Source: an uncultured Acidobacteriota bacterium (GTDB lineage Bacteria; Acidobacteriota; UBA6911). From it: 64,000 bases of DNA. Both the position numbers and the translations under genes were made by a program. The notes beneath the pieces were generated by a model. The model searched no databases and had not been told where the DNA came from. It worked only from the letters and a program-made list of their open reading frames with translations. The stretch's first letter is position 1. Every line of letters starts with the position of its first letter. The stretch spans positions 909,691 to 973,690 of the forward strand of contig CAVRJA010000014.1 in NCBI GenBank assembly GCA_963721405.1. Direction: 5' to 3'. This document shows positions 7,291-46,583 of the stretch, in pieces.

Positions 7291-7599
7291 AGAGTGTGTC
7301 GAATGGTTGATCCACGTCTGACGAGGCCCGAAGGGCCGGCAGTGCATAGGCCCGGCCGTCAGGCCGGGATAAGGATAACGAGGCAATTAGCGCCGAAGGT
7401 GCGGCACAAAATGTCCGGAAGTGCATTGAATGTGCCGGCCCTTCAGGCCTCGCTCTCCAGCGTGCCCGAACCCCGCGCTGACGCGCGGGGCGCTTCAATG
7501 CCGGCGCTTCGCGCATCCCCCCAGCTTGCATCTCAACCGTTGCCTACCCCTCATCAGCCCGACGCCTCGCGTCGACCATCTAATCCCCGTATCTCAAGC

Positions 7600-19487: not shown

Positions 19488-20069
19488 TCAGGGGAGAAGG
19501 TCGGTGACGGCGATGGTGGTTTCGGGGGCGGCGAGCGGCGCCAGGTTTTGGCCCGGCCCATAGTGATCTGCCGTGCGGTAACTCCAACCGTAGAGCGCAT
19601 TGTCTGACGGGGCCGGGTCGCGGTTGACTTCGATGCGCCCGGCCGGCAGGTTCACGATCCAGTAATCCGCAATACCGGCGCGGGCGTACAGACTCCCTTT
19701 GCGGTCGCGGTCGTATTCGAGCGAGGTGTCGGCGACCTCGACTACAAGCACCGCCGAGGCAGGATGGGCTTCACGGTAGTCGCGCCATGATCCTTGAATA
19801 ACGGACAAGTCCGGCTCAGGTTCCGAGGCGGCATCCAGGGCAAGGGGGAGTTGGACCTGCACATCAAACCCTGTATGGAAAGCGGCTCTCAGGGCCTCTT
19901 CGACCGCCCGGATCGCCGCAGCGTGCTGTCGCTTCTGCGGAGTCATGCTGAAGATTTCCCCATCGATGAGCTCGGCGCGCCTGCCCGGGGAGAAGATGCC
20001 CGTCCCGATCATCTTTTCGAATTGTTCCCGCGACCAGCGCCCCATTTCGACTGCACCCACAGTTTTCAC
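19488..20069 (-). CDS. Uma2 family endonuclease (DUF820, restriction-endonuclease-like fold)
   Basis: 193 aa. EQFEKMIGTGIFSPGRRAELIDGEIFSMTPQ...VVEVADTSLEYDRDRKGSLYARAGIADYWIVNL matches the Uma2/PD-(D/E)xK-like family. Confidence 0.75.
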   Translation of the reverse strand: MKTVGAVEMGRWSREQFEKMIGTGIFSPGRRAELIDGEIFSMTPQKRQHAAAIRAVEEALRAAFHTGFDVQVQLPLALDAASEPEPDLSVIQGSWRDYREAHPASAVLVVEVADTSLEYDRDRKGSLYARAGIADYWIVNLPAGRIEVNRDPAPSDNALYGWSYRTADHYGPGQNLAPLAAPETTIAVTDLLP

Positions 20070-20746: not shown

Positions 20747-20856
20747 CCCGGCCGCGGCCCGCTCCTCCGAAATCACCCGTAATGCAGCTTTCTTAGATGC
20801 CGGCAAAGCGATACCCTGAAAAGAGTCGCTTTGCATTCACTTACGGAGGAACGGGA

Positions 20857-21606
20857 ATGGCCACTACGGTAACTGAAATCGCAAAGAACGTGTATCGCGT
20901 TTCGACCTTCCTGCCTGAATTTGAAATCGCGGTAAACCAATTCCTGATCAACGACGACGAACCGTTCTTAATGCACACCGGCTTCAAGATGAATTTCACA
21001 TCGTCCCGGGACTCAATCGCCTCGGTGATGGACCCCGCTGCGCTGCGTTGGATCGGATTCAGCCACCTGGAATCCGACGAGTGCGGCGCCATGAACGACT
21101 GGCTTGAACTGGCTCCCTCGGCCCAGGCCATCTGCAGTTTTATCGGGGCCGTCGTTACGATTGGCGACTTCGTAATTCGGCCGGCGCGCCCGCTCAGCCA
21201 TGGAGAAATCGTGGAAACCGGCGAGCATCGGCTGCGGTTCCTGGCCACGCCTCACGTTCCCCACGGATGGGACGGAGGCCTGTTTTTTGAAGAGCGGGAG
21301 CAGATCCTGCTGTGTTCGGATCTCCTGTTCCACCCGGGCGATCCGGAACCGGTCACGAGCTCCGACATCGTTGGCCGCGCGCGAGCTTCGATTCTGGAAA
21401 ACCTCTCCGGGCCGCTTGCCAACGACTTACCTTACACGCCGCGCACGGACCAGACGATTCAGTCATTGGCTGATCTGAAACCGCGCATCCTTGCCCTGAT
21501 GCACGGCTCTGCCTTTTCCGGCGACGGCGAACGCACGCTGCACGACTACGCCGCCGTCCTGAAAGAGATCCACGGCTTTCAGAACCGCGAGATCCTCAAA
21601 GACTAA
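20857..21606 (+). CDS. MBL-fold metallo-hydrolase / ODP-like domain protein
   Basis: GGAGGAA RBS before the ATG at 20857. Metallo-beta-lactamase-fold pattern (FLMHTGF...HLESDECGAMNDW...ATPHVPHGWDGGLFFEE...ALMHGSAF). Confidence 0.65.
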   Translation: MATTVTEIAKNVYRVSTFLPEFEIAVNQFLINDDEPFLMHTGFKMNFTSSRDSIASVMDPAALRWIGFSHLESDECGAMNDWLELAPSAQAICSFIGAVVTIGDFVIRPARPLSHGEIVETGEHRLRFLATPHVPHGWDGGLFFEEREQILLCSDLLFHPGDPEPVTSSDIVGRARASILENLSGPLANDLPYTPRTDQTIQSLADLKPRILALMHGSAFSGDGERTLHDYAAVLKEIHGFQNREILKD

Positions 21607-21621
21607 AGATCATAAGTTCTT

Positions 21622-21810
21622 TTAGGCTCTGCTGGTTTCCGGCTCAGGATCACTCCCCGGGTCCAGCAGGCTCGGGCGCCAGAGGCCGTCCTTCGGCTGG
21701 ATGGCCACGATCATTTCCGCCATTTCCTTGCACAGTTTTTCATATCTCGGCCGGTCGGGGTATTTCGCGGGAATGAACTGCAGGAAACAACGATCACCAG
21801 AATCGAGCAT
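21622..21810 (-). CDS. hypothetical small ORF (low confidence)
   Basis: 62 codons (MLDSGDRCFLQFIPAKYPDRPRYEKLCKEMAEMIVAIQ...) downstream of the 30-bp inverted repeat. The longer ORF extension runs through the repeat. Confidence 0.2.
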   Translation of the reverse strand: MLDSGDRCFLQFIPAKYPDRPRYEKLCKEMAEMIVAIQPKDGLWRPSLLDPGSDPEPETSRA

Positions 21811-21863
21811 GCTCTTCTGAATCGCAGCATGTGGTGAGCCTTTCGAACAGATCACCGCAATGG

Positions 21864-21950
21864 GGCACGGATCTGCACGGATATGCACGGATCGGTCCAT
21901 GCGTGATGCCGGCATGACTGGATCCGTGCATATCCGTGCAGATCCGTGCC
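21864..21950. promoter_or_regulatory. perfect 30-bp inverted repeat built from three 10-bp direct repeats (TGCACGGATM), 27-nt spacer
   Basis: Arm 1 at 21864..21893 is GGCACGGATCTGCACGGATATGCACGGATC. Arm 2 at 21921..21950 is its exact reverse complement. There is no downstream U-tract, so this is a candidate operator or structured element rather than a simple terminator. Confidence 0.6.
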
Positions 21951-21970
21951 CTGCTACTCGTCCCACTCTC

Positions 21971-22681
21971 TCACGGAATCTGCACGCCGCAGTGCGCGCA
22001 GTGTCGGTGGCCGGTCCCGGCGGATCCCCCCCGCGGCCGTACAGCCGCGGTCTTGGGGCAGGTGACCTCGCTGCAGCTGTTGCAGATCTTGTACCGGCAG
22101 ATCGAACACACCGAGGAATTCAGCGGGATCTGGGTGTTGCAGTGCGCGCAGTGCCAATGGTCCACCCCGTCGCCCGCATCCTGCGGCCGATAGGCAGAGG
22201 ACCCGGAGATGCCCCTCAGAGGCGGTACCGGCAGAGAAAAATCCGCGTCCGGCTCCTCCATGGCGCGCACACCCTGCCGAGAGGCAGAAGGGCTGGAGAT
22301 GCCTTTCGGAGGCGGCAGCGGCAGAGAAAAATCCTCGTCCGGCTCCTCCATGGCGCGCACGCCCGCGGCCGTCATTTCCTGGCCGCCCCAGGAGTGGTCG
22401 TAGTCGCATACGTGCCGGCCGGTGTGCTTTATCCGGCGCCGGCACCTGGTGTCGCAGCGCGGGCAAGGGGTCAGGCACCAGTCGCTCCCGGGCTCGCCCG
22501 CCACACTGAACAATTCCTGGCAGCTTTCGCACGTGTGCCTGCCGCCGTGACCCTGGGCGGAATCACACACGCCCTGCACGCCGCCGGCGCACAGGTGTAT
22601 TGCCTCGCACTTCGGCACATTATTCGGTACGCTCTTTCCCCCGTAATGGGGCGCATCCCTTCCACTCTCGCCTACCGGCAT
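21971..22681 (-). CDS. Cys-rich multi-zinc-ribbon protein with internal 31-aa tandem repeat
   Basis: Many CxxC pairs (CESCQELF, CPRCDTRC, HCAHCNTQIP...CSICRYKICNSCSEVTCP, HCAHCGVQIP). Tandem repeat GVRAMEEPD(E/A)DFSLP(L/V)PP..GIS. Translationally overlapped with the upstream gene at 22672..22681. Confidence 0.6.
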   Translation of the reverse strand: MPVGESGRDAPHYGGKSVPNNVPKCEAIHLCAGGVQGVCDSAQGHGGRHTCESCQELFSVAGEPGSDWCLTPCPRCDTRCRRRIKHTGRHVCDYDHSWGGQEMTAAGVRAMEEPDEDFSLPLPPPKGISSPSASRQGVRAMEEPDADFSLPVPPLRGISGSSAYRPQDAGDGVDHWHCAHCNTQIPLNSSVCSICRYKICNSCSEVTCPKTAAVRPRGGSAGTGHRHCAHCGVQIP

Positions 22682-23121
22682 GGCACACCTCCTCTTTCAG
22701 ACGCCTCTCTGCAACTGGAACACAGCGGGCCTCCGCAAAACGCGCACACGTCGATACTCTCGTCAATTCTATTGTGACAACCTGGACACGTTTCAACGAT
22801 GTCGGGACAGTTTTCAGACGTGCACTCCGGACAGAGTTCGGCGGCGGAGTGCTCACAGCGCTTCGCCGCCGGTTCTACGACCTCGCCTGCGACATGTTGA
22901 TAACGGTGGCCCGTCTCCGGGTGGGATTCTTTCCGCCGGGCTCTCGCCGGTTCCGAAGCTGCAGATTCCTCCGGAGGTTTGGGACGGATGGCTTCACCGC
23001 TTGTGAATAAAGCGAGGCAACTGCTGCACAGGTGCCGGCCATAGTGACCATCAGGTTGAGTGCACTCGCCTTCACCGCCTTCCACGCATTTGTGTCTGCT
23101 CTTGCATCGGGGCAGGCTCAT
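22672..23121 (-). CDS. Cys-rich zinc-binding protein with N-terminal CxxxHxCxEGxEGEC...GHYGRHLCSSC motif
   Basis: 149 aa. The N-terminal motif is paralogous to the 45081..45719 product. Further CPEC/CPGC/CAFCGGPLCSSC pairs. Confidence 0.6.
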   Translation of the reverse strand: MSLPRCKSRHKCVEGGEGECTQPDGHYGRHLCSSCLALFTSGEAIRPKPPEESAASEPARARRKESHPETGHRYQHVAGEVVEPAAKRCEHSAAELCPECTSENCPDIVETCPGCHNRIDESIDVCAFCGGPLCSSCREASERGGVPCR

Positions 23122-23378
23122 ATTCCACTCCCCTTCCGTCGAATGACCTCCCTACGACACTCCGGCCTCAATCTGCACGAAGTGAAACCGTTCACGCGGC
23201 TGATCGATCATAACTTGGGCTTTCGGTGAATTATAGCCAACACCCTACCACTCCCGGCCCCGTCTATCAACATCGATCAAGCGCGATCACTGTGTCGTCC
23301 ATGACCTTCCCGTGCGGATAATCTTTAAATATCCAACATTGTATGAATTAAAATGGTCCCGAGGAAGGAGGTGCATCC

Positions 23379-23627
23379 GTGAGCGCCTTGGACGACGATC
23401 TGAAGAAGATGGGAAAGGAACTCGACGACCAGCTCTCCAAGCTGAATAATTCCCTTGCGGGCAATCTGCAGAAAACCATGGGCAGCAGCCAGGGGCGTAG
23501 GACCAAAGTTGCAGGGGAAGAGTCCTTCTGCAATGCTTCCTGTGAGTGCCTGTACACCTGCGACCGGTCGCCGGTGGGACACTTCGAGCCCCATCATTGC
23601 CCGCATTGCGGAAGGTCCTGGAACTGA
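23379..23627 (+). CDS. small coiled-coil plus Cys/His-rich zinc-binding protein
   Basis: 82 aa. GTG start with AAGGAGGTGCA RBS. C-terminus CNASCECLYTCDRSPVGHFEPHHCPHCG. Paralogous in sequence and RBS context to 46584..46829. Confidence 0.55.
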   Translation: MSALDDDLKKMGKELDDQLSKLNNSLAGNLQKTMGSSQGRRTKVAGEESFCNASCECLYTCDRSPVGHFEPHHCPHCGRSWN

Positions 23628-23702: not shown

Positions 23703-24707
23703 ATGACTATCTGCAAAAAGTGCAACGAAGAGGGAGGCGACGGCCTCTACTGCAATAGCTGCGGCGCTCGTTTTGACAAGGAACGGGCGTGCCCGAAATG
23801 CGGTGCGGCTTTGGGCGCCGCGGCCAGATACTGCCCTGCGTGCGGCTGTCCCCTGGACACGAAGGGGACAGCCGCTCCCCGGGAAACCGCCGGCGGTGGT
23901 TACCGCGGGGGCGACATCGGAATTCTCCGGGGAAACATAGACGGCTCTACTCACACCTCCAACGCGTCGTTTGGTGGGGCCAGCACCGGCAACATCATCA
24001 TCGGCATACCGCCGACTCAGCCTTCGGGCCCTCCGCAGACGATCTGTCCCGTTTGCGGCGAATATCCGGAATTGCGCGCCAGCTTCCGCTGCCTTCGCTG
24101 CAACCGGGATTACATATGCCTCCGCCACCGGGACACCGCGTCGAACTGGTGCCGGGATTGCGCCGCGCCGGAACGAAAGCGCCGTGAGACGGAGAGCAAG
24201 AGATCAGATGAGTCGAGCCGCAACGTGGAAGTGGAGCGGGGCGGCATGGGGGAGAACCTGGATAGGGTCGAGGCCGGGAGCGACAGAGGATCGAGAGAGG
24301 GAACAGGGCGTACGGCTGGACCGCAACAGCAGGACGCCTGGGCGCACGGACAGCAGGAACAGGCGCCCCCAATGCGCCCGGCGGCGCGGCTTCTCAGCGA
24401 GGGAGTGATCTGGACCAATGCGCAGGGGCCGGATTTGATGTCCGTCGTGTGCGAGGTCCTTCAGTCCTTCGGGGCAACGGACGTGAGGCCGGATCCTCAA
24501 TCGCAGACGGTCACCGGAAAAACCGGCCTCACCTGGAAAAGCATCGGGCAGATCATATCGGCCACGATTCGACCGCTTCCGGACGGATCGTCGGTCACCG
24601 TCGTCAGCAAGCCGAAGCCTCCACAACTGATGGATGGGGGAAGGGGCGCCAGTGATGCGCGCCAGATCGCCGGCATGCTTCTGCAGCGACTCGGCGCCGG
24701 ACGATAA
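23703..24707 (+). CDS. double-zinc-ribbon domain protein
   Basis: N-terminus MTICKKCNEEGGDGLYCNSCGARFDKERACPKCGAALGAAARYCPACGCPL (DZR-like). Second ribbon CPVCGEYPELRASFRCLRCNRDYICLRHRDTASNWCRDC. No homology recognised in the C-terminal region. Confidence 0.6.
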   Translation: MTICKKCNEEGGDGLYCNSCGARFDKERACPKCGAALGAAARYCPACGCPLDTKGTAAPRETAGGGYRGGDIGILRGNIDGSTHTSNASFGGASTGNIIIGIPPTQPSGPPQTICPVCGEYPELRASFRCLRCNRDYICLRHRDTASNWCRDCAAPERKRRETESKRSDESSRNVEVERGGMGENLDRVEAGSDRGSREGTGRTAGPQQQDAWAHGQQEQAPPMRPAARLLSEGVIWTNAQGPDLMSVVCEVLQSFGATDVRPDPQSQTVTGKTGLTWKSIGQIISATIRPLPDGSSVTVVSKPKPPQLMDGGRGASDARQIAGMLLQRLGAGR

Positions 24708-24835: not shown

Positions 24836-27400
24836 CTAACGGACGCATCGGAATCCCACCTGTGATGAGCACAAGGTAGGCACGGATCCGCCTCGCCACG
24901 CGGAGCGCAACATTCTCGGGTCGTCATTCCACGCTCCGCCGCGAACCGTCCTTGTGCCGCCGGCCTGCAGATTTTCCCTCCCGTCGTCGCCCCGGTATGG
25001 GTAGGCCGCAAACAGGCCGGACGTCCATTCCGCGACGTTGCCCGACATGTCGTACAATCCCCACGCATTCCGTCGCATAGCATTCCCTGTCGGGAGGGTG
25101 CCGGTGGGGCTGTTGACTCCAAAATTCGGGTTGAACAACGGGCCCCACCAGTAAGCGCTTGTCGTTCCGGCGCGACAGGCATACTCCCATTCGGCCTCCA
25201 GCGGCAGCCGCTTCCCGACCCACCGTGCGTAGGCCAGTGCTGCGTGCCAGCTTACATCCCGGACCGGGTGGAACTCCGTTTCCGCAGGATACAGGTTCCC
25301 CATCCAGGTTTTCAGGTAGTTGCCGTCCACGTAGGGGCCAATCCTCGCGCTCCCCTTCTGCCATTGGGGGTTGGCAAGGACGAACGCCTGGAAGGCGCTG
25401 TTTGTGACTTCCATCGTGTCTATCCAAAAGCCTCTTGTGAAGCTCAGGCTGTGTACGGGCTCTTCGTATTGTGTGTGCCCATACTCCATGGCGGGGCTGC
25501 CCATAAGAAACGTCCCTGGCGGGATCCAGGCCATGGTGCTGCCGTCAGGCGATTTCCAGGTTGTGCCCAGAGCCGGGTTCGCGGGTGGATCGTCGGGATT
25601 CATGAATTTCTCAAACCCATCGGCGATATGGTTGGCCGCGTCCTTCCGGCTGCCGAGATCTTCCCAACCGGGGATTTTGTCCGTGGGCTTTTCGGCCACG
25701 GCTTTGCTTCGGCTCTCCGGGACAGGCTCTTGCCTTCGGACGGCAGAACTGGCAGCGGTGCCTGTAGCGCTCCCCGCACTCGCTTTCGGAGACTCCGGCG
25801 GTGCGGCGGCGGACCCGGCGCCGCTCTGCGAATCGCTGCCGGAGCTGCCGGGGGTAGATTGGGGAACGGTGCTCGAACTCGAGTCGTTCGCATACTCGTT
25901 GAAAATCCAATAGGCGGAAGGAACTGCGAGAACGACCGCGGAGCCCAGAATGAGCAATGCGGTCTTCCATGAACCGCGCGGCTTGGGAAGAGCTTCCCGG
26001 AAAATCTCGGCTTTCGGAGGCTCTTGCCTTTTCTTCATCGCCTCCCGACACCTGGCAAGCGCCTGCGAAAGCATGGTCTGGTTCGGGTCGGCCTGCAGGG
26101 ACTGCACCAGGTAGTTCTCGGCTTCCTGATATTTTCCCTGTGTCAGCAGGGAATCGGCGTGGATCAAGACCGTCTCGGCCCATTGCTTCTTCACTGCCTC
26201 GGCCTGCTGTCGCTCTGATTCCCTGCGCGCCGTTTCCTTCCTTTCCGCCTCCTCTTCCGCGCGGCGCCTGGAGGCCTCCTTCTTTTCAACATCGGTCTGC
26301 CGCTGTCGCGCCAGGGCAAGCGCGTCATTCAAGGCGGCGTCGCCTGGTTTCAGGGACAGCGCTTCTTCCCAGTTGGCGATAGCGTCGGCGTACCTGCCTT
26401 CGTCGAACGCCTTCGTCCCGCGCAACTTCAACAAGGCCAGAGTCGGCGCCAGTTCCGGCTGCCGGCTGTCGTCTTCCTTGCGCTGCAGCTCGTCGAGGAG
26501 TTCCTGGAGGCTGTGAAAGCGGTTTTCGGGTTTCTTCTCGATGCATTTCATGACGATGCGTCTGATCCCGTCGGATGCATCCAGGATCTCGCGAGGCGTC
26601 TTGTGGCGGATCTGTGCGGTGATCTCGCCGGTGATAAAAGGCGGGTCTCCGGAAAGCATCTCATAGAGAACGACACCCAGCGAGTACAGGTCACTCGCTT
26701 CTCCGCTCTCGCCGTCGAGCTGCTCCGGCGACATGTAGAGCAGGGTTCCCGAGTCCTGCTGCGAGGTGAGCCGCGACATCGAATCGCGGCACAGCCGCGC
26801 GATGCCGAAGTCTGCGATCTTGATGGACCCGTCTTTCCCGATCAGGATGTTTCCCGGCTTGAGGTCCCGGTGGACGATCCTCTTCTGGTGCGCGTGCTGT
26901 AGTCCCTTGCAGATCTCGATCGCGATCGCGCGGGTTTCTTCCTCGGGGAGTTTGCCCTTCCTGGCCAGGAGGTGGGCCAGCGATTCGCCTTCCACATACT
27001 CCATGACGAGAAACTTGACGGTCGGCGCGTCCTCGAAATTGTGCACCCGCACCACATTGGCATGCGAAAGCATCATGGAGTGCTTCGCTTCGGCAATCAG
27101 CCGGCGAACGGACCCCGGATCACGACTCAGGAGATCCCGCAGGACCTTGATGGCGACCGGCATCTCCAGTTTCTCGTCGTGGGCAAGATACACCCGTCCC
27201 ATGCCGCCCACTCCCAGTTCCCGGAGGATCCGGTAGCGATTCAGCAGCATCGTGCCCGGAGGCAGGGTCATCTCGGTGGGAGCGGACCTCAGCGGATCCT
27301 GCGGTTCAGAGGTCACCGGGGTTGGGGTGAGGTCGCGGCCACAGCAGGAACAGAAGCGGCCGTCGTCCGGATTACTCGCACGGCAGTAGTTGCAGAACAT
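24836..27400 (-). CDS. Ser/Thr protein kinase with N-terminal zinc ribbon, TPR-like linker, TM helix and C-terminal FGE-sulfatase (SUMF1-like) domain
   Basis: MFCNYCRASNPDDGRFCSCCG. Kinase subdomains (GVGGMGRVYLA, AIKVL, HRDLKPGNIL, DFGIA, SPEQ). TM (ALLILGSAVVLAVPSAYWIF). FGE-sulfatase motifs (WHAALAYARWVGKRLPLEAEWEYACRAG, NAWGLYDMSGNVAEWT, RVVRGGAW). Confidence 0.9.
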   Translation of the reverse strand: MFCNYCRASNPDDGRFCSCCGRDLTPTPVTSEPQDPLRSAPTEMTLPPGTMLLNRYRILRELGVGGMGRVYLAHDEKLEMPVAIKVLRDLLSRDPGSVRRLIAEAKHSMMLSHANVVRVHNFEDAPTVKFLVMEYVEGESLAHLLARKGKLPEEETRAIAIEICKGLQHAHQKRIVHRDLKPGNILIGKDGSIKIADFGIARLCRDSMSRLTSQQDSGTLLYMSPEQLDGESGEASDLYSLGVVLYEMLSGDPPFITGEITAQIRHKTPREILDASDGIRRIVMKCIEKKPENRFHSLQELLDELQRKEDDSRQPELAPTLALLKLRGTKAFDEGRYADAIANWEEALSLKPGDAALNDALALARQRQTDVEKKEASRRRAEEEAERKETARRESERQQAEAVKKQWAETVLIHADSLLTQGKYQEAENYLVQSLQADPNQTMLSQALARCREAMKKRQEPPKAEIFREALPKPRGSWKTALLILGSAVVLAVPSAYWIFNEYANDSSSSTVPQSTPGSSGSDSQSGAGSAAAPPESPKASAGSATGTAASSAVRRQEPVPESRSKAVAEKPTDKIPGWEDLGSRKDAANHIADGFEKFMNPDDPPANPALGTTWKSPDGSTMAWIPPGTFLMGSPAMEYGHTQYEEPVHSLSFTRGFWIDTMEVTNSAFQAFVLANPQWQKGSARIGPYVDGNYLKTWMGNLYPAETEFHPVRDVSWHAALAYARWVGKRLPLEAEWEYACRAGTTSAYWWGPLFNPNFGVNSPTGTLPTGNAMRRNAWGLYDMSGNVAEWTSGLFAAYPYRGDDGRENLQAGGTRTVRGGAWNDDPRMLRSAWRGGSVPTLCSSQVGFRCVR

Positions 27401-27486: not shown

Positions 27487-29274
27487 CTAATTCTTCTGTG
27501 CCGAGACCGTGCCCCAGCCCAGGGGGTTTTGAACCTGGCCGGTCATGTGGCGACCGTCGGGTGATACTTCGAGAGTGAGATTTGCCGGGATTGGCGGAGG
27601 AAGGGAATATCCATCCGCCTGATAACTGCCCCGGGAGCAGGTTGCGGTCAGGGTGCGTCCATTCAGGCTGCCCTCACAATCGTACTGCTCGACGATTCGA
27701 CTATGAAGCAGGCCGTCGAGCGCGATCCCCGAATAAGCAGCTAGGCAACTCAACTGCAAACGACTGTTCGCGCCGGTGATCTGCATCAGCCCCCTCACGT
27801 TGGTCGGGGCGACCGTATAAGACCACGCGCCTCCGAGATCCATTGCCGGCGGTGGAGGAGTGATCACCGGGGGAGGAATGCCCGGCGGGGGAGAGTACTT
27901 GGCCCCGGTACCGGCCGATTGAGACAGGATGTACGCGAATATCACCACGATCAGGAGGGCTGCGCCTGAAAGCACGATGATTTTCTTCACCGGCCTCGGA
28001 CGGGGGCCGGGTTCATTCATGAGTGGCGCCGCGCCCGGCGCCTGTTCCCGGCTCATCCTCCCGCGAGCCTCAGCGAGGCACGCCGTCAACCGGGGATGGT
28101 CCGGATGCTGCTGCAGGGCCTGTAGCAGCAAGTTCCGGGCATCCTGAATTCTCTCCTCCCGGAACATGAGCCTTGCCCGTGAGACAATATCATTGACCCA
28201 CGACTCTCCCGCATCTTCAGCCTGCCTGTGTCCCGCTTTCATGAGCGCGCGTTCGGCCTCTTCTGCACCCGGCACCGGGATCGCGGCCATCGCCGCTGTG
28301 GCGGTAGTGCCGGCGAGTTCCTTGCAGAGCTCGCGCGCGCTGGCAAAGCGGTCCTCCGGCTTCTTTTCCAGGCATTTCATGACGATGCGGCGCATCAGGG
28401 GAGACAGCCCCTCGATCTCTTTCGGGGCCTTGTAACGGATCTGAGCCGTGATCTCGCCCGTAGTGAATGGGGGGTCCCCGGAGAGCATCTCGTAGAGCAT
28501 GATGCCGAACGAGTATATGTCGCTTGCTTCCCGGCTCTCGCCATCCAGCTGTTCGGGTGACATATACAGGAGAGTTCCCGAGTCCTGTTGCGAGGTCAGG
28601 CGCGACACCGAGTCGCGGCAGACGCGCGCGATCCCGAAATCCGCGAGTCTGACCGAGCCGTCATTGCCCAGCAGGACGTTCCCCGGCTTCAGATCACGGT
28701 GAATGACTTTCTTCGAATGAGCGTGTTCCAGGCCTTTGCAGATCTCTATGGAGAGGCACCGCGATTCTTCCTCGGGGATTCTCCCTTCGCGGGCGATTCT
28801 GTGGGCGAGGGTTTCGCCTTCCACATATTCCATGACGAGGAACTTCGCCGTTTCCCCGTCCTCGAAATTGTGCAGGCGGATGATGTTCGGGTGCGCGAGT
28901 GTGATGGAGGCCTTGGCTTCGGAAATCAGCCTCCTGACGGAGCCCGGGTCCTGCCTCAGGATGTCGCGCAGCACCTTGACGGCGACCGGCATTCCGAGCT
29001 TCTGGTCCTCGGCCAGGTACACTCGTCCCATGCCTCCGGCGCCCAACTCCCGGACAATCTTGTATCGGCCCGACAGCATGGAACCTGTTTGCAATCCCAA
29101 CTCAGTTGCCGACGAGGCGAGCGCATCCACGGGTCCCGGTCCGTCCCGGCCGGCTCGCATACCGCCGCCGGTTCGTGGGGTCGTGGGCCGCAGTTCGGCC
29201 CTGCAGGAGCAGCAGAAGCGATCTTCTCCGCCGCATTCCGCTCCGCATTGAGGGCAATATCGTGTATCGGTCAT
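27487..29274 (-). CDS. Ser/Thr protein kinase with N-terminal zinc ribbon and C-terminal extracytoplasmic domain
   Basis: MTDTRYCPQCGAECGGEDRFCCSCRAEL. Kinase motifs (GAGGMGRVYLA, HRDLKPGNVLL, DFGIARV). TM (KKIIVLSGAALLIVVIFAYIL). Tandem paralog of the upstream kinase. Confidence 0.9.
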   Translation of the reverse strand: MTDTRYCPQCGAECGGEDRFCCSCRAELRPTTPRTGGGMRAGRDGPGPVDALASSATELGLQTGSMLSGRYKIVRELGAGGMGRVYLAEDQKLGMPVAVKVLRDILRQDPGSVRRLISEAKASITLAHPNIIRLHNFEDGETAKFLVMEYVEGETLAHRIAREGRIPEEESRCLSIEICKGLEHAHSKKVIHRDLKPGNVLLGNDGSVRLADFGIARVCRDSVSRLTSQQDSGTLLYMSPEQLDGESREASDIYSFGIMLYEMLSGDPPFTTGEITAQIRYKAPKEIEGLSPLMRRIVMKCLEKKPEDRFASARELCKELAGTTATAAMAAIPVPGAEEAERALMKAGHRQAEDAGESWVNDIVSRARLMFREERIQDARNLLLQALQQHPDHPRLTACLAEARGRMSREQAPGAAPLMNEPGPRPRPVKKIIVLSGAALLIVVIFAYILSQSAGTGAKYSPPPGIPPPVITPPPPAMDLGGAWSYTVAPTNVRGLMQITGANSRLQLSCLAAYSGIALDGLLHSRIVEQYDCEGSLNGRTLTATCSRGSYQADGYSLPPPIPANLTLEVSPDGRHMTGQVQNPLGWGTVSAQKN

Positions 29275-30711: not shown

Positions 30712-30782
30712 TACGGATCCCCCGTTAGTCTGACATGTGCTCCACCCGGCGACACGGGTGAATGACAAAAAGAACGAACCAC

Positions 30783-30885
30783 GAAGACTCAAAGACCTCA
30801 AAGACGGCCGGTGTGGAGAGCCTTAGAGCAAGGCTGCCCCTGCGGAGGAAGCGACAGCCCCCGCCTTTGAGGTCTTCGAGTCTTT
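30783..30885. promoter_or_regulatory. long imperfect inverted repeat in intergenic or leader region
   Basis: GAAGACTCAAAGACCTCAAAG (30783..30803) pairs with CTTTGAGGTCTTCGAGTCTTTGAGG (30865..30885), with about a 60-nt loop. The flanking GAACCACGAA motif is shared with the 19414 hairpin. Confidence 0.5.
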
Positions 30886-30940
30886 GAGGCTTGGAGGTTC
30901 TCCAATAGTCAACGACTCATGTTGTCGTGCAACACCCTGG

Positions 30941-34808: not shown

Positions 34809-36026
34809 TCAGTTGCTGTCTGCGAACTCCCGGAACCGCAGCACCAGCTTTTTCAGCTTTTCGGTGTCGATCCGGACGCGCCGGAAAGCCTCGTCGAAAT
34901 CCTTTTTCTGCAACGGACGGATTCTGAGCCTGTAGCTTTCGATCGCCTCCCGGCCCGCATCGACGCAGTGCGGAATCTGCCCGTTCAGCTCCTCGACCAT
35001 CACGTTTACAGCCTGGTTCGCCAGCCGCTCCAGATCCCGTCCGCTGAACCACTCCGTGTTGCGCACTACTTCCTGAAGCGGGTAGTCCAGCGCATGCCCC
35101 TCCTTCAGCAACTGGATCTCCAGAATCGCCTTGCGTGCTTCGGCGTCCGGCAGCGGGATATAGACGCGCTTCTGAAAGCGGCTGAGAATCGCGTCATCCA
35201 GATCCCAGGGCGCGTTGGTGGCGGCGATCGTGAGCACGAACCGGTCCTCGCCCTTGTCCGCCAGCCCGTCGAGTTCCGAGAGAATGGTGGAGAGCATCCT
35301 CCGCTCCGCCCCGCTCTCCGAGCCCTCTCCGCGCGCCAGGCACAGCGACTCGACTTCATCCACAAAAATGACCGCGAATCCCTCGTCGGCTTCGCTGCGC
35401 GCGGCGTTGAAGAGTGCCGTGACCAGCTTGGACGACTCGCCGAAGTATTTGGAGAGCAGGTTGCTGGCCTTTACGTTGAAGAAGGTCGCACCCAGGCCGT
35501 TGCTCGTAGCCGCCGCGAGCAGGGTCTTGCCCGTTCCCGGGGGGCCGTAGAAGAGCATTCTGCGCCAGCCCGAGAGCTTCACGTTTTCGGGCTTCTGCGC
35601 AAGCGCCAGGCCGTAAGTGAACTTGATCTCCCGCTTGGTGGCCTCGAGGCCCCCGATCTTATCCCACGTCACCTTGCTGCGATGAATCAGCGACGCGATT
35701 TCGTTCGTGTACTGCTGCTCGTCATCCTCTGGAGCGCGCTCCCGCACCTTGTCGCCCGGCCCCTGTGATGGCGGCGCAGACGGGAGCACTCTTCGCTTGC
35801 CGGCTTTCAACGCTTCTGCAATCTCGAGATACTGGCGGGACTTCTGCCTTCGACGCATCTGATCCTCACGCGTCAGCGCGTAGTCGGCATAGCTTCTCAT
35901 CAGCTTGGCCGCCTTCGTATAGGTTGCGGAGGCTTCGGCGCCCTTGTTCTGCGATTCCAGCGCCCGGGCCTCGGCCAGAGTTTTATCGAGAGACACCTTG
36001 AGGGGACCGCTCAGGTCGACATCCAT
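34809..36026 (-). CDS. MIT-domain AAA+ ATPase, Vps4/katanin-like (meiotic clade)
   Basis: N-terminal three-helix MIT-like region (LDKTLAEARALESQNKGAEASATYTKAAKLMRSYADYALT...RQYLEIAEALKA). Walker A GPPGTGKT. Walker B FVDEVES. Vps4-like ATNAPWDLDDAILSRFQKRVYIPLPD. Confidence 0.85.
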   Translation of the reverse strand: MDVDLSGPLKVSLDKTLAEARALESQNKGAEASATYTKAAKLMRSYADYALTREDQMRRRQKSRQYLEIAEALKAGKRRVLPSAPPSQGPGDKVRERAPEDDEQQYTNEIASLIHRSKVTWDKIGGLEATKREIKFTYGLALAQKPENVKLSGWRRMLFYGPPGTGKTLLAAATSNGLGATFFNVKASNLLSKYFGESSKLVTALFNAARSEADEGFAVIFVDEVESLCLARGEGSESGAERRMLSTILSELDGLADKGEDRFVLTIAATNAPWDLDDAILSRFQKRVYIPLPDAEARKAILEIQLLKEGHALDYPLQEVVRNTEWFSGRDLERLANQAVNVMVEELNGQIPHCVDAGREAIESYRLRIRPLQKKDFDEAFRRVRIDTEKLKKLVLRFREFADSN

Positions 36027-36050: not shown

Positions 36051-36680
36051 TTAGTCGTCATCGCTGATCTTTTCGGCTTTGATGGCTTTGTCGATCTCCT
36101 CGTGGAATCGGGACAGGTCCTCATCGTCGGTTCCGGTCTCCTCCGCCTTCGCCATGTCTCCGATGGCTTTGTCGAAGTCGGCAAAGCCTACGTCCTCTTT
36201 TACTTTTCCCTGAGTGACTCCCAGTTCCTCCTCACCCAGAATCTCCTCCAGCATGTCGTTGAAGGTGTCGTCGTCGACCTCGGCGGAGTCGATGGCCTTC
36301 TGGATGGAGCTGTCTTTGAAGCGCACGATCAGGTTTTGAAGGCTCTTGCGATCCTTCTTTTTCTCCAGCATCTCCATTTTTCGCAGGAAGGAAGTGAGTG
36401 CCGTCTTGGCCAGGGAGAGGCGCCGCAGGTCGCTGTTGACGTATCCGTTGTCGATTTCCACCTGCCTCATCTCCCGGAAAATATCCCGCAACACCTCCTG
36501 TTTGCCCCCCTTCTTGGCGACGACCGCCTCCTTTACCTTCTGCTGCTTGCGCTGCTCCATGACATCGAGGTCGCGCCGCTTCTTTTTCTGATCGCGCTCG
36601 ATCTCCTTGAGCTGAACACGGATATCCGCCGCATTGGGCGACTTGCTGAACAATTTGTCTAGCAGATTCATGACTCTCAC
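36051..36680 (-). CDS. Snf7/ESCRT-III-like coiled-coil protein with acidic C-terminal (MIM-like) tail
   Basis: 209 aa. Basic N-terminal helices (KEIERDQKKKRRDLDVMEQRKQQKVKEAVVAKKGGK). Central region similar to Snf7 alpha4-5 (IQKAIDSAEVDDDTFNDMLEEILGEEELG). Acidic end DDEDLSRFHEEIDKAIKAEKISDDD. 24 nt downstream of the MIT-AAA ATPase gene. Confidence 0.7.
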   Translation of the reverse strand: MRVMNLLDKLFSKSPNAADIRVQLKEIERDQKKKRRDLDVMEQRKQQKVKEAVVAKKGGKQEVLRDIFREMRQVEIDNGYVNSDLRRLSLAKTALTSFLRKMEMLEKKKDRKSLQNLIVRFKDSSIQKAIDSAEVDDDTFNDMLEEILGEEELGVTQGKVKEDVGFADFDKAIGDMAKAEETGTDDEDLSRFHEEIDKAIKAEKISDDD

Positions 36681-37330: not shown

Positions 37331-40048
37331 CTACCGGATAGATCTTTGGATGTAAGTCTTCCCTTTGTGATCGAGAATCTGAAAGCGTCCGCCGGCGACT
37401 TGAACGGCGGCCGCTGCCGACTGGCGATCCAGATTGTGCTCGGCCAGGAAGGAAGCCATCGTCACCGATTCCCCCGGCAATGCCAGCCTGGGGTGATCCG
37501 ACAGCGCCTTTTCGGCGCGGACCCTCTTCTCCCCGCAGGTCTCCGGATCGAACAGGTCACGGAGGGGGCTTTCGTGGCCAAACACGATCCAGGATGTACC
37601 TTCGCCTTTTTCGACCAGGTAGAACAGCGCGTTGCCGCGCGCCTCGGCGTGCCTCTTCCAGTCTTCCGGCCACCCCGTGGGGGAGAAGATCCCGACGCAA
37701 TAGAAGTCCTGGTCCGTGAAAGCCAGGCCGCCGGGGCCCATGATTTCCTGCAGGATGCTATCCGCACCCTGGAGGCCTGCCCCGCCTGGTGCGAGAGCCT
37801 CGAGGTCCCGCCTGACGGCAGCCAGGATGAAGCGGTTCTTCTTTAACAGTCCGGCAGCCAGGGCAAACTGGGTCACGCCGCCGAATGATCTGCGGAAGGA
37901 CTGGCCCTGCGATTTCGGGTCTATTTCGAATTCTTCCCCGCTCCATGGGTGTATCACGCGTCCCGCGTCTCGCACCTTGAGATCAAACCGATTGATGAAG
38001 GTGTCGCCCCAGCAGGGAACCGGCGCCATCGGAGGGGGCTGGGACCGGAGATCGTGCGTCGTCATGCGGGGGAATCCCTCCGCCGTGAGGCCCGGCCTCG
38101 TGGAAGCAGCCGCCTGCGACGGAAGAAAGACCGGGTCCCTCGCTGCCGCGGCGCCCGAAGCCCTGGGCGCCGGCGCCGGGGACATTTCGGGCGTGGAGGC
38201 GTTCTCTTTGTGTCTCTCGCATGAGCGGTGGCCGAGTTGCCAGCAGATCCGGCATATCGGGGCGCCGCATTCGCGGCATTCCCAGACCGGCGAAAACACG
38301 CCGACTTTTGTCAGGTAGCGCTTTCCGCATCGATAACAGACATCGGGCTCGAAGCCCACGGGCGCCGCGGGCGCGGCCCGGGCCGGAACAACTTCCGGCT
38401 CGTCCACCGCAGGCACGGATCTCACCTCCGCGGGCGCCGGAGCGGCGGCTCGCGACGAGTGGATGTGCGCCGGGGCGCGGCGCTGCGCTTCCCGGCCGGC
38501 TTCCGTCATGTTCACCAGTCCATGTCCCACCTGCATGTCACTGGCATACTCCTGGCCGTCGGGGCCTTTCAGGGGACGGCATGCGAAATAAAAAAGGTCG
38601 ACCAGGTCGGCGGGAGTCGGTTCCCAGCCGAGTGAGCGCAGGATTGATTTGAGCAGCACCAGGCAGCCAGCGATCGCCGGCGTTGCCATGCTGGTGCCCG
38701 AGAGGCGCACGTGGCTCTTGTCCACCACTTCGGATGCGTCATAGCCGGCTGTGGAGGATCTGGCGGCGACCACATCCACGCCGGGTCCCACACAGTTGGG
38801 CTTGCCGAATAACGGTGATTCGGGATTTGCGCTCCCCTGAGCGGAAAACGCTGCCAGGAGTCTATTCTTGTCTATGGCGCCCACCGTCACGGCGGTAGGG
38901 CAGTCCGCGGGGACGCAGATCGACTCCGGGTAGGACGGCATCGGGTTGCCGGCGGCCACGCACACCACGGTCCCCTTGCGGAAGGCTTCGGCGCAGGCCT
39001 TTGACCAGATCGATTGTCCGTTCGGCGTCGTATCCATCTCTCCCAGCGAGAGGCTCAGGATGTCGGCCTTCTTCTCTACAACGGCCCACGCCATGCCCCG
39101 GAGAATCGATTCGAGATTGCCGGCCCTACCGGGGGATAAAACCTTGCCGGCGATCAGGCGGCAGCGCGGCGCGATTCCCGAATACCTGCCCCCGAGGGTC
39201 GTGTCGTCGCCGGCTGCGATGGAGGCAACGTGGGTCCCATGCCCGTCGACGTCTTCCTCCCCGCTGAGGGTGAAATCTTGATAGTCCTCGTGGGATATCC
39301 TGGAGAGTGCCGGGTGGCTGCGGTCGACGCCGGTGTCGAGCACGGCGAGTGTGACGTCCTGGCCGAATTGCGCCATGATGTCGGGAGTGACTCCGAGGAT
39401 CTCCCGGCTTTCCACCATCATGGTGGTGACCGCCATTGGAGCGGGCGCCGTTACGGGGGTCAGCGGATCGGCGACGATCCCCGCCTCGGGCAGGCCGGCA
39501 ATCTCGCGCACGAAACTCATCTCCGGCGGGCAGGTGAGCTTTACGATGCCGAACTGCTCCAGGAGCTCTGCCGGCAGAAGGGCGAACCCCTGGGAGACCA
39601 GGCGGCTCTTGAGCTTCTCCATCGCGCCCGGATCCTGCGACATGCACAGGACCGCGGGCCACTTTTCAGCGGGCACCAGGTCGGAATAGCAGCGCATCGA
39701 TCCGCCGGGATCGTTGCGGACATTTTCCGGGGCGGCGATGTCACGGAGGTCGGAATCCAGGTGCTCCTGCAACCTCGAGGCCAGGGCCATTTCACCGACG
39801 CCCTGTCCGCGAAGCCCGGAGACCACGGTCGAATAACGTTCGTAAGCGTCGCCCCGGATTACCCTGCGGTTGATGACACGGTCGACGCGCAGCCGTTCCT
39901 TCTCGTCGTATTCACGCTCCTCGATGCGTTCGTCGATCACCTCGAAACGCAGGGCGGCCTCGGCTTGCTGAGCAATGACCTGGCGCCGCCTCGCTTCCAG
40001 CGACTGCACCAGGAACGAATGAATCTTCGCATCGACTGCATTGTTCAC
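37331..40048 (-). CDS. subtilisin-like serine protease (peptidase S8) with embedded zinc ribbon and large C-terminal domain
   Basis: Catalytic triad blocks VAVLDTGVD (Asp), DGHGTHVASIAAG (His), SGTSMATPAIAG (Ser). Insert CYRCGKRYLTKVGVFSPVWECRECGAPICRICWQLGHRSCERH. Stop overlaps the upstream gene (40045..40048). Confidence 0.85.
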   Translation of the reverse strand: MNNAVDAKIHSFLVQSLEARRRQVIAQQAEAALRFEVIDERIEEREYDEKERLRVDRVINRRVIRGDAYERYSTVVSGLRGQGVGEMALASRLQEHLDSDLRDIAAPENVRNDPGGSMRCYSDLVPAEKWPAVLCMSQDPGAMEKLKSRLVSQGFALLPAELLEQFGIVKLTCPPEMSFVREIAGLPEAGIVADPLTPVTAPAPMAVTTMMVESREILGVTPDIMAQFGQDVTLAVLDTGVDRSHPALSRISHEDYQDFTLSGEEDVDGHGTHVASIAAGDDTTLGGRYSGIAPRCRLIAGKVLSPGRAGNLESILRGMAWAVVEKKADILSLSLGEMDTTPNGQSIWSKACAEAFRKGTVVCVAAGNPMPSYPESICVPADCPTAVTVGAIDKNRLLAAFSAQGSANPESPLFGKPNCVGPGVDVVAARSSTAGYDASEVVDKSHVRLSGTSMATPAIAGCLVLLKSILRSLGWEPTPADLVDLFYFACRPLKGPDGQEYASDMQVGHGLVNMTEAGREAQRRAPAHIHSSRAAAPAPAEVRSVPAVDEPEVVPARAAPAAPVGFEPDVCYRCGKRYLTKVGVFSPVWECRECGAPICRICWQLGHRSCERHKENASTPEMSPAPAPRASGAAAARDPVFLPSQAAASTRPGLTAEGFPRMTTHDLRSQPPPMAPVPCWGDTFINRFDLKVRDAGRVIHPWSGEEFEIDPKSQGQSFRRSFGGVTQFALAAGLLKKNRFILAAVRRDLEALAPGGAGLQGADSILQEIMGPGGLAFTDQDFYCVGIFSPTGWPEDWKRHAEARGNALFYLVEKGEGTSWIVFGHESPLRDLFDPETCGEKRVRAEKALSDHPRLALPGESVTMASFLAEHNLDRQSAAAAVQVAGGRFQILDHKGKTYIQRSIR

Positions 40049-41933: not shown

Positions 41934-42536
41934 TTACTTGCCGCTCTTTTCAATCTCCTTCTGGATCGCCGAAAGATCCTTGTCGATCTCTTCGTCGATG
42001 CCTGATCGTTCCTCGTGAGCGACCTCTTCCTCAAGCATCTTGTCGATGTCGGCGTCGCTCACCAGCTGGCCCTCGGAACTGCCTTCGTAGTCGAACATCG
42101 ATTCGGATGTCATCTCCAGGAATGTGTCTACCCGCTCTTCGAGGTTCTCCGCCTGAGACATCGCCTTCTCGAAGTTGACCTGCGTCTTGGCCATGTCCGT
42201 CGCGCCAAAGACCTCGGAAATTGACTTCGAGAGCGAGTTCATCGCGTTGGCGAACTCAAAGTGGCCCTCCGCCTGTTCTTTGATCTGCACGGCGGACTCG
42301 AGGGCAAGCATCTGCCGCTCGAGCCGGACCTTGATCGTCGCCGTCTTCTTGATTGCCTTCTTGAGGAACTCGTATTGATTGTTCCAGCCGAGCTTTTTGG
42401 CCCGTTTTGCCTTCTCGATGTAGTCGGATTCGTGCTTGGTATTGGCAGCGATCTGGCGTTTGATCTGAGTGACGGCCTTCCGGATCTGAATGTTCCGTTC
42501 GATGCGCCGTTCCTCCTTGGACTTGAAGAGACTCAT
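41934..42536 (-). CDS. Snf7/ESCRT-III-like coiled-coil protein (paralog 3, CHMP1/Did2-like layout)
   Basis: MSLFKSKEERRIERNIQIRKAV... has a basic N-terminus. MAKTQVNFEKAMSQAENLEERVDTF resembles CHMP1 alpha4-5. Acidic C-terminus with DIDKMLEEE...IDEEIDKDLSAIQKEIEK (MIM1-like). Confidence 0.7.
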   Translation of the reverse strand: MSLFKSKEERRIERNIQIRKAVTQIKRQIAANTKHESDYIEKAKRAKKLGWNNQYEFLKKAIKKTATIKVRLERQMLALESAVQIKEQAEGHFEFANAMNSLSKSISEVFGATDMAKTQVNFEKAMSQAENLEERVDTFLEMTSESMFDYEGSSEGQLVSDADIDKMLEEEVAHEERSGIDEEIDKDLSAIQKEIEKSGK

Positions 42537-45080: not shown

Positions 45081-45719
45081 CTATTCCCAGGATCCGCGAT
45101 TCACTGTCCAGCGGCTGTGTGCAATTCGGTCCTCAAAGACCATCGTGTTGTCATCCACGACGGTATAGAAGTAGGTCCAGCTGGTAATCCAGGTCATTTT
45201 CTGCCCGTTGTACACCTTGGGCTCATGGTCCTGAACGACGAAGTGGATGTAGCCGTCGCCGGTCTGATACGTTCCCACGTCATAAGTCATCAGATACCCG
45301 AGGAAAGCCTGCTGCGAGAACTTTTTTGCGTCGTCGAGAATCAGCTCGGTCCTCATGATGCCGTATTGCGTCTGGACCTGCGAATTCCAGATGCCGGAGA
45401 GCGGGAACTGGCCGGGCTGGGCCTGTTCCGCCCCAAGGGCAGGCTGGGACTGTTTCATCCGGGCAAAGGCCTGAGATGCCGGCTGCCTGGGAGGGATGTT
45501 TGAATCGGCAGCCGTATCCGCGGGCCCCGCGCCTCTGCCGACTGCCTGTGAAACGGGCGCCGCGGGCTGAGAACGCGCGGAAGGGCCTGCCTCCTGTGAG
45601 CCGAAAAAGGAAAGGCATTTCTTGCAGAGATGCTTTCCGAAGTGGCCCAGAATCTGGCTGCACTCGCCCTCGTCCCCCTCGGGGCACCTGTGTTTCACCG
45701 GGCAAAAACTGAGAACCAT
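45081..45719 (-). CDS. Cys-rich protein with N-terminal CxxxHxCxEGxEGEC...GHFGKHLCKKC motif (paralog of 22672..23121)
   Basis: Start trimmed to the Met giving MVLSFCPVKHRCPEGDEGECSQILGHFGKHLCKKCLSFF. C-terminal globular beta-rich domain. Confidence 0.5.
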   Translation of the reverse strand: MVLSFCPVKHRCPEGDEGECSQILGHFGKHLCKKCLSFFGSQEAGPSARSQPAAPVSQAVGRGAGPADTAADSNIPPRQPASQAFARMKQSQPALGAEQAQPGQFPLSGIWNSQVQTQYGIMRTELILDDAKKFSQQAFLGYLMTYDVGTYQTGDGYIHFVVQDHEPKVYNGQKMTWITSWTYFYTVVDDNTMVFEDRIAHSRWTVNRGSWE

Positions 45720-45994
45720 CGCCCCCTCCTTCGCTTTGAAGAGGCAGCGGCTGCGATCGCCGGAGCCACGCGCGCGACCGCCGCATCCCGCAACAGCAGA
45801 TGCCACGGCAGTCGGCGCCTCACGTCTTCCGGTGTTTGGATCACCCTACCACGAGCAACAGCAATTATCATCATGCTTTTTCTGTGATCCAGCGCCGTCT
45901 TATTTTCCAGGATGGCCGCCTGCTGTTCCCGGATAGTCTTTGCCTGTTCCGCGAGCTGAAGCGTCAGTTCCTCGATCTCCTCCATCAGTTTCAC
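45695..45994 (-). CDS. hypothetical small coiled-coil protein (low confidence)
   Basis: MKLMEEIEELTLQLAEQAKTIREQQAAILENKTALDHRK... Overlaps neighbours by 4 nt (ATGA) upstream and 25 nt downstream. Confidence 0.25.
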   Translation of the reverse strand: MKLMEEIEELTLQLAEQAKTIREQQAAILENKTALDHRKSMMIIAVARGRVIQTPEDVRRRLPWHLLLRDAAVARVAPAIAAAASSKRRRGRWFSVFAR

Positions 45995-46395: not shown

Positions 46396-46583
46396 TGTGA
46401 CTGCCGGCCCGGACGTTTTTCTATCTCGATGGCGCCGTGTGAGCTACAATCGTGCGTGGTCGCGCACGATTCCGGACGAATTTGTCTAAAGATCGCCATT
46501 GAAGCGGATGGGCATGCAGTGGCGAGACCCAGACTTCGGTAGAGAAAGCGATGCTGTCTCCGATATCAGAAGGAGGTGCAGAG

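Follow-up and report, generated by a model that had tools for sequence, protein, structure and literature searches.

A Cys/His-Rich Module in Two Homologous Forms, a Candidate Docking Unit in Small Proteins around a Putative ESCRT-III/Vps4-like Island of an Uncultured Acidobacteriota Bacterium

Introduction

Effector-associated domains (EADs) are terminal domains of nucleoside triphosphate-dependent conflict systems, and most EADs are alpha-helical (Kaur, Burroughs, Iyer, Aravind 2020, eLife; PMC7159879). In this study, a small Cys/His-rich module that shares several features with EADs was found in a stretch of 64,000 nucleotides from an uncultured Acidobacteriota bacterium (GTDB lineage Bacteria; Acidobacteriota; UBA6911; GenBank assembly GCA_963721405.1, contig CAVRJA010000014.1, positions 909,691 to 973,690, forward strand), which is called the window hereafter. 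The module occurs in two forms, type A, carried by the genes A1, A2 and A3, and type B, carried by B1 and B2. These genes lie around an island that encodes a Vps4-like AAA ATPase and tentatively ESCRT-III-like proteins. An original prediction, made from the nucleotide sequence, had pointed to A1, A2, B1 and B2 as duplicated modules at the two ends of the island. We report that the module constitutes a new family among the wide variety of small zinc-type interaction domains, and we argue that it may be a docking unit.

The module resembles EADs in being small, non-enzymatic and terminal, and in being fused to a wide range of unrelated effector or signalling parts. Copies of it are found in adjacent genes (A1/A3/B1 and A2/B2) and elsewhere in the genome, and the genes that carry it lie beside AAA/kinase/vWA-type systems. 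Unlike EADs, the module is Cys/His-rich with beta-hairpins, and its copies in the window are not mutually closest relatives. Membership of a described EAD family was not supported, as Pfam-A, which should include EAD models, gave no match on the module.

Zinc ribbons (Zn_Ribbon_1, DZR, eS31/S27a, TFS/RpoM) are the other close comparison. In this fold, a single zinc is held by four ligands from two knuckles (CxxC or Cx4C) on separate beta-hairpins. Zinc ribbons share with the module short beta-hairpins and a terminal C-x2-C knuckle after H-x3-H-x; the module's H-x3-H-x-C-x2-C is similar to H-F-D-R-H-Y-C-G-K-C of eS31, and both the island and the same proteins are rich in classical ribbons. However, the module has eight conserved ligands, not four, and its first knuckle reads C-x7-C in type A and C-x3-C in type B. 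The Zn_Ribbon_1, DZR and Zn_ribbon_3 hidden Markov models (HMMs) gave no significant match to the motif region, and the module did not superpose on solved zinc ribbons. RING, IBR, B-box and MYND domains likewise place eight Cys/His ligands in ~30–40 residues. To our knowledge, the ligand spacing of the module is unlike that of any of these four, and no HMM or fold match to cross-brace or two-zinc domains was obtained.

Results and Discussion

The Cys/His Module and Its Two Forms

The A1 gene (22672–23121, minus strand) encodes 149 aa and the A2 gene (45081–45719, minus strand) encodes 212 aa. BLASTP showed that the two proteins are related (E 7e-15) within the first ~45 residues. The shared part is only a 43-aa module, which occupies residues 1–43 of both proteins (22993–23121 in A1, 45591–45719 in A2); the C-termini are unrelated. 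The consensus of type A is M-x-L-x2-C-x3-H-x-C-x2-G-x2-G-x-C-x5-H-x3-H-x-C-x2-C-x3-F, with the ligand spacing C-x3-H-x-C-x7-C-x5-H-x3-H-x-C-x2-C. The eight Cys/His ligand positions are invariant in the module alignment, and G15, G18, Q22, G25, G28, L31 and F39 are conserved non-Cys columns. The original prediction that the A1/A2 motif is paralogous is thus upheld, as the conserved glycines, Gln, Leu and Phe go beyond generic CxxC spacing.

The B1 gene (23379–23627, plus strand, 82 aa) encodes an amphipathic N-terminal helix (residues ~1–34) and a C-terminal type-B module with a ligand span of 23529–23609. The B2 gene (46584–46829, plus strand, 81 aa, GTG start) likewise encodes a helix and a type-B module (ligand span 46731–46811). 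The two proteins align over their entire length with E 2e-10 and are paralogous, as had been proposed. Type B has the consensus C-x3-C-x(1-2)-C-x3-C-x(4-5)-G-H-x3-H-x-C-x2-C-G-x2-W. The two genes also have the start context that the original prediction described: GGAGGTGCA-N3-GTG occurs exactly twice in the window, each time at a B start, against 0.01 occurrences expected. We take the GGAGGTGCA context to be an extended Shine-Dalgarno (SD) sequence. In B1, the SD and start are GGAGGTGCATCCGTG at 23367–23381, in the divergent A1/B1 intergenic region (23122–23378); the 5′ flank of B2 is GGAGGTGCAGAG (46572–46583). The B1 orthologue on contig L004 has the start context GGAGGTGCG-ACC-GTG. The SD-N3-GTG context places the B2 start at the GTG at 46584, and an independent 81-aa gene call agrees.

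When types A and B are aligned, every ligand has its counterpart in the other form, and B has a four-residue deletion. A profile-profile comparison (hhalign; 26 A and 13 B sequences) gave a probability of 95.8% and E 7e-9. Judged by these alignments, a single module exists in the two forms A and B. Both forms are present in the A3 gene (21971–22681, minus strand, 236 aa), whose ATG overlaps the A1 stop by 10 nt and whose SD is GGAGGTG (22686–22692, minus strand). A3 encodes, in order, a type-A module, a B-like module, two 30-aa repeats and C-terminal zinc ribbons. Its type-A module (22496–22624, ligand span 22520–22609, minus strand) matches the ligand-spacing regular expression and gave a BLASTP E of 5e-9 against A1. 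The B-like copy (22394–22477, minus strand) follows after ~12 residues and reads WC-x3-CPxC-x3-CRR-x3-H-x-G-x-HVC-x3-H-x-W. The 30-aa repeats in the linker are encoded by two tandem 90-bp repeats that are 87% identical (22186–22364, minus strand). The four genes of the original inventory are real; A3 with its two copies, which had been missed, and the homology of A and B are additions to it.

Six module copies were thus found in five genes of the window, two in A3 and one in each of the others. The ligand-spacing expression matched these six copies in the six-frame translation and gave no match in 400 shuffles. All six fall within 25 kb around the island.

The A1–A3 gene pair was also called by an independent gene caller on the related metagenome contig L001. 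Orthologues of A1 have 88% and 61% identity and identical length, and B1 has the orthologue P0003; an exact look-up of A1 matched no record. The remaining parts of A1 are a linker (residues 44–85) and a Cys-rich, zinc-ribbon-like C-terminus (residues 86–149). The ratio of nonsynonymous to synonymous divergence (dN/dS) of A1 against L001 was 0.06 for the module, 1.06 for the linker and 0.09 for the Cys-rich C-terminus. The module is shown to be a genuine domain and, by this codon comparison, to be under purifying selection.

Distribution and Domain Architectures

An exhaustive HMMER search with the module profile against 1.84 billion cluster representatives gave 38 clusters at E <= 1e-3, of which two or three (P0042, P0051 and possibly P0040) are repeat or low-complexity matches; the family is thereby shown to be rare. 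Genomes and metagenomes were scanned with fixed-spacing degenerate DNA patterns. The A-spacing pattern gave eight true hits with one genome per species, all in metagenome-assembled genomes (MAGs) of Acidobacteriota/Terriglobia, with up to three paralogues per MAG. The metagenome scan added nine B-like open reading frames (ORFs), two of them with a preceding signal or transmembrane segment. A word-indexed search with a 44-aa motif profile yielded one useful protein, P0003, and the A2-family profile had no match in the genome scan. Only low-complexity matches came from the viral contig scan, which gave no sign of a phage-borne family.

The module measures 30–43 aa, and its first Cys stands at residue 4–7 in 29 of 43 motif-bearing proteins, which places the module at residue 1; for type A this position is nearly universal. 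The parts that follow the module are HWHCAHC...CP zinc-ribbon arrays, DGPGxGGGY repeats, the lipocalin-like barrel, coiled coils, hydrophobic tails and a Lon_C protease domain (E 1.7e-5). These C-terminal parts are mutually unrelated. In B1, B2 and P0003, the type-B module closes a short protein and is preceded by a single helix. A–B tandems occur in A3, P0018, P0040, P0041, P0043 and P0044. In P0018, one chain combines an A1-like with an A3-like protein, a Rosetta-stone hint that A1 and A3 work together. Ribosomally synthesised and post-translationally modified peptide precursors were ruled out as an identity for the carriers, since no modifying enzymes lie nearby and the proteins are long and multi-domain.

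On five metagenome contigs of 1–6 kb (L031, L034, L038, L035 and L037), B-like modules begin small ORFs that adjoin very arginine-rich small proteins. These contigs may be small phage-like or other mobile elements.

A2 has 14 homologues. They share the module and, behind a Pro-rich linker that varies, a C-terminal domain of ~105 residues that is strongly conserved. In A2 itself, a Pro-rich disordered linker leads to this domain (residues ~105–210; 45090–45407), which AlphaFold2 (AF2) predicted as an eight-stranded barrel with a pLDDT of ~90 or higher. Foldseek matched the barrel to the periplasmic domain of ToxS and to bacterial (Bacteroides) lipocalin-like proteins with a probability of 1.0 and E 3e-4 to 1e-2. 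Eight strands are shared with these proteins, at a target-normalised TM-score of 0.47–0.63, whereas the identity is only 8–16% and there is no Pfam match. The predicted model thus supports a lipocalin-like (calycin) domain at the fold level only.

The A2 barrel follows a cytoplasmic-looking Cys/His module, not a signal peptide. In the A2 homologue P0017, a lipoprotein signal and a Q/N-rich tether stand where the module would be, ahead of the same barrel. It could be argued that the module replaces the signal peptide as a signal for export or for targeting to the membrane or a compartment, all the more because such lipocalin-like barrels are usually periplasmic and a signal or transmembrane segment precedes the module in some distant members. 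We consider this very unlikely. No hydrophobic segment was found in A1, A2, A3, B1 or B2, no secretion-system genes lie nearby, and the strict Cys/His spacing suggests zinc binding in the cytoplasm. In L030 (4790–5032) and L036, small proteins carry a B-like module after a lipoprotein-like signal or transmembrane segment (…LTAC…). This sequence arrangement hints that some distant members act outside the cytoplasm.

Structure Prediction and Library Searches

The AF2 model of the A–B tandem was confident by its mean pLDDT of 83.5 and showed four short strands in short beta-hairpins. The eight ligands would fit two Zn sites on a scaffold of beta-hairpins similar to a zinc ribbon, and the module presumably binds Zn. 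Since eight Cys/His positions are invariant, the module could also be a switch that senses metal or redox state (Zn, Cu, thiol oxidation) and controls the attached domains. This is the most improbable explanation considered here: the gene neighbourhoods show no link to metal homeostasis or redox genes, and the fixed spacing and predicted hairpins are more typical of structural zinc sites.

Pfam gave no match on the module in A1, A2, A3, B1, B2 and ten further family members, while its zinc-ribbon models matched the C-terminal ribbons of the same proteins and never the module. NCBIfam and PADLOC had no match for any A or B protein. The best result of a profile search against PDB sequences was the eS31 zinc ribbon (E 0.067, 16 bits, 29 columns), which is not significant. 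Foldseek found no match for the module among PDB folds, with an IBR domain among the noise-level hits. The motif strings, or a specific related system, were absent from the papers found by a literature search. The module is a previously undescribed family with no Pfam, NCBIfam or PDB relative, and the original prediction, which did not recognise the motif as a described domain, is borne out by these searches.

The resemblance to eS31 (E 0.07) is the best, non-significant likeness in favour of zinc ribbons that bind nucleic acid or RNA polymerase, in which case the B proteins would be DksA/TraR- or TFS-type factors or small regulators of transcription or translation of the neighbouring genes. 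The B architecture superficially resembles TraR, and the genes lie in divergent promoter regions. This reading is nevertheless distinctly unlikely. The matches are at noise level, and there was no Pfam hit to zf-dskA_traR or to a DNA-binding family; B1 and B2 had no DksA/TraR hit in Pfam or NCBIfam at E up to 0.1. DksA/TraR proteins consist of a coiled-coil hairpin and a C4 finger, whereas B has one short helix and eight ligands. Gly/Tyr repeats, a protease domain and a lipocalin-like barrel, to all of which the module is fused, are unusual partners of DNA-binding domains, and the conserved columns show no evident basic patch. Promoter and terminator scans of both A/B gene groups performed no better than on shuffled sequences.

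The Island and Its Links in Other Genomes

The island is a minus-strand gene array at 24.8–43.4 kb. Its left end is a gene for a Ser/Thr kinase-TPR-FGE-sulfatase protein (STK-TPR-FGE; 24836–27400, minus strand; Pfam). In total, two Ser/Thr kinases are encoded in the island, along with two SPFH proteins that carry zinc ribbons, an S8 subtilase (37331–40048, minus strand) and AAA ATPases, one of which (34809–36026, minus strand) matches the PADLOC IetA model (E 2.4e-32) and a second of which matches Vps4_C. The protein AAA381 had p97/Cdc48 as its best PDB matches, with Vps4 at 6e-55. Further products are u209, u204 and u200, three helical proteins that are weakly related to one another and have acidic tails; u209 (36051–36680, minus strand), in the island core, is tentatively ESCRT-III-like.

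In BLAST, the acidic N-terminal helix of B1 (residues 4–16, LDDDLKKMGKEL) matched u209 and u200 only at their extreme, acidic C-termini, and these matches were short and not significant (regions compared: B1 23379–23480, u209 36051–36680, u200 41934–42536). The C-terminal tails of ESCRT-III proteins are the site of MIT-interacting motifs.

The u596 gene (47649–48998, minus strand) lies in the right flank of the island and is co-directional with a bPH membrane-protein gene. Its product has weak FHA-like (TagH FHA model, E 0.002) and CARDB-like (E 0.03) matches. The long ORF spans 47649–49439, and orthologues align only from residue 147. On this alignment, the true start is probably at ~48998 (MERTIMDELQ).

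The linkage of the family to such genes was also found outside the window, next to the relatives of STK-TPR-FGE, u209 and u596. On L048–L050, an A2-type gene (55% identity) is followed on the same strand by a kinase-TPR-FGE gene with 53% full-length identity to 24836–27400. On L051 and L052, an orthologue of u209 (60% identity) lies 30 nt 3′ of an A2-type gene (45% identity), on the same strand. Zinc-ribbon-type A genes on L016 and L044 stand directly 5′ of u596 orthologues (62% and 52% identity; 8–754 on L016 and 1190–2215 on L044). On L004, the order B1-DZR334-kinase is kept with 71–79% nucleotide identity. A TPR-vWA operon on a 35-kb contig ends with an A2-type gene, and L043 carries two divergent A-type genes. 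Most A-type genes elsewhere are solitary and lie in unrelated contexts; despite this, the family is linked to island parts. The condition that would have refuted the original prediction, a complete lack of island linkage among homologues elsewhere, does not hold. The linked components themselves showed no further copy: a regular-expression scan of L047–L050 found the A2-type motif only, and the A-type tblastn matches on L051 and L052 lay only within the A2-type gene, not in the u209 orthologue.

The recurrence of kinase and FHA genes as neighbours also fits an N-terminal recognition tag, by which the carriers would be clients: kinase substrates then read by the FHA protein, or proteins that the AAA ATPases and the S8 subtilase would unfold or process. 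In favour of such a tag are the island's IetA-like AAA ATPase (E 2e-32) and S8 subtilase, and the strictly N-terminal position of the module with a disordered linker after it. We regard a client tag as unlikely, because no conserved Thr or Ser stands out beside the module, the linkers evolve neutrally, and the C-terminal B type and the A–B tandems would be left unexplained.

Origin of the Two Gene Groups

The two A/B gene groups stand on either side of the 24.8–43.4 kb array. In both, A is encoded on the minus strand and B, divergently, on the plus strand, and the B genes share the SD-N3-GTG start. The original prediction had explained this arrangement by a segmental duplication flanking an inserted island, or by boundary-specific regulators. 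The left and right groups have no DNA similarity except a 12-nt SD match, and a search for att-like or direct repeats or a tRNA at the island edges found none. The A copies of the window have 67–74% identity to homologues elsewhere (51% for A3) and 30–53% identity to their paralogues in the window. The copies are thus closer to homologues in other genomes than to each other, which makes them old subfamilies. A recent segmental duplication was ruled out by the lack of DNA similarity and by these identities.

The symmetry of the two groups is also incomplete. A2 and B2 do exist on the right, as had been proposed, but they are not immediate neighbours, being separated by 864 bp without a called gene, and an amidohydrolase gene lies between A2 and the island. 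Contig L004 retains the island edge and B1 without A1, and 5′ of B1 is the end of an unrelated gene. Homologues elsewhere are mostly solitary or lie inside or beside system genes, not at edges, and nothing points to DNA binding. Duplication and boundary regulation are therefore highly improbable as explanations of the two groups.

Proposed Role of the Module

We propose that the module is a zinc-stabilised, non-catalytic docking (adaptor) unit. This is the most likely role, with a rough probability of 0.5. The module would join interchangeable C-terminal parts, namely zinc-ribbon arrays, a lipocalin-like ligand-binding barrel, a Lon-type protease domain, Gly/Tyr repeats or coiled coils, to a shared machine via a floppy linker. 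The shared machine would be the ESCRT-III-like/Vps4-like AAA, SPFH, Ser/Thr-kinase and FHA system of the island. A constrained terminal module, a neutral linker and interchangeable C-termini, with copies beside system parts, correspond to the docking logic of EADs. In the most specific version, free A (A1, A2) would bind free B (B1, B2), and the B helix would tie the pair to the machine; the idea of A:B pairing comes solely from the A–B fusions and the two A/B gene pairs in the window. We infer zinc binding, docking, the A:B pairing and the machine component contacted.

Several observations weigh against the docking proposal. A six-frame scan of the window found the module in A1, A2, A3, B1 and B2 only. 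The island core, with its kinase, AAA, SPFH and S8 proteins, does without it, whereas a copy on a core component is a hallmark of EADs. No B-type gene lies within ~4 kb of the type-A genes at eight loci in other acidobacterial genomes, and most of these loci have unrelated neighbours. The assignment of u209, u204 and u200 as ESCRT-III is weak and tentative, with E 0.27 for u200 against Snf7. The pTM of the A–B tandem model is just 0.52. In L030, L036 and P0050, the module stands behind a signal or transmembrane segment, and an extracytoplasmic site suits a zinc adaptor less.

We also speculate, as a quite improbable extension of docking, that A and B make up a code by which a bacterial membrane machine of the ESCRT-III/Vps4-like kind selects its cargo. 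The B proteins would be bridging adaptors, with the N-terminal helix, faintly similar to the acidic tails of the ESCRT-III-like proteins, engaging the AAA ATPase or the filament and the B module capturing any protein with an N-terminal A module, and kinase/FHA signalling would gate the process. If true, such a code would be a bacterial counterpart of adaptor-mediated ESCRT cargo sorting.

Other Features of the Window

A double-zinc-ribbon protein (DZR334; 23703–24707, plus strand, 334 aa; Pfam DZR) is encoded 75 nt 3′ of B1. The GC content at third codon positions (GC3) of A1 is 0.58, compared with 0.71–0.81 for neighbours (20797–21606 was used for comparison). Synonymous divergence between the window and L001 is 0.20 for A1 and 0.14 for A3, and only 0.025 for the adjacent ODP-lactamase gene. 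In L001, ~965 bp including a DNA_alkylation gene replace 126 bp of the window (21640–21765). These data suggest that the A1/A3 neighbourhood is a recombination-prone variable spot. Directly 3′ of A3 is a near-perfect inverted repeat (21863–21951) with 40-nt arms, 90% complementarity and a 9-nt loop; it consists of GCACGGAT-like units, and similar peptides are read from either strand. A gene for a Uma2-family putative restriction endonuclease (19488–20069, minus strand) lies ~2 kb to the left of A3–A1.

Within the island, the IetA-like AAA gene and the S8 subtilase gene have two small genes between them and may form an IetAS-like defence pair. The kinase genes share stretches of 72–76% nucleotide identity (26487–26884 and 28316–28713) and are tandem paralogues. 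An inverted repeat with 36-nt arms and CTCAAAGAC-like units (30779–30889) lies between the DZR484 and SPFH706 genes.

In the A2–B2 gap (45720–46583), two minus-strand ORFs, 134 and 99 aa long, overlap at 45991–45994 and have an intermediate GC3 (0.64). A toxin–antitoxin pair was not supported for them: neither has a Pfam match, and the independent gene caller calls neither. An Acido-Lenti-1 RNA (7324–7369, minus strand) scored 38.5 bits, above the Rfam gathering threshold, and supports the acidobacterial origin of the window.

Significance

Bacterial islands with Vps4-like AAA, ESCRT-III-like, SPFH and eukaryote-like kinase proteins are poorly understood, and the module offers an experimental handle on them. 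As a candidate docking unit, it labels a limited and varied group of accessory proteins that recur beside different parts of the system in different genomes, and it may reveal partners or clients. If the module is just a lineage-specific zinc ribbon, the study still defines a new family and corrects the gene model of A3 and the start positions of B2 and u596. By the genome scan, this new domain family occurs only in Acidobacteriota, a phylum that has seen little experimental work.

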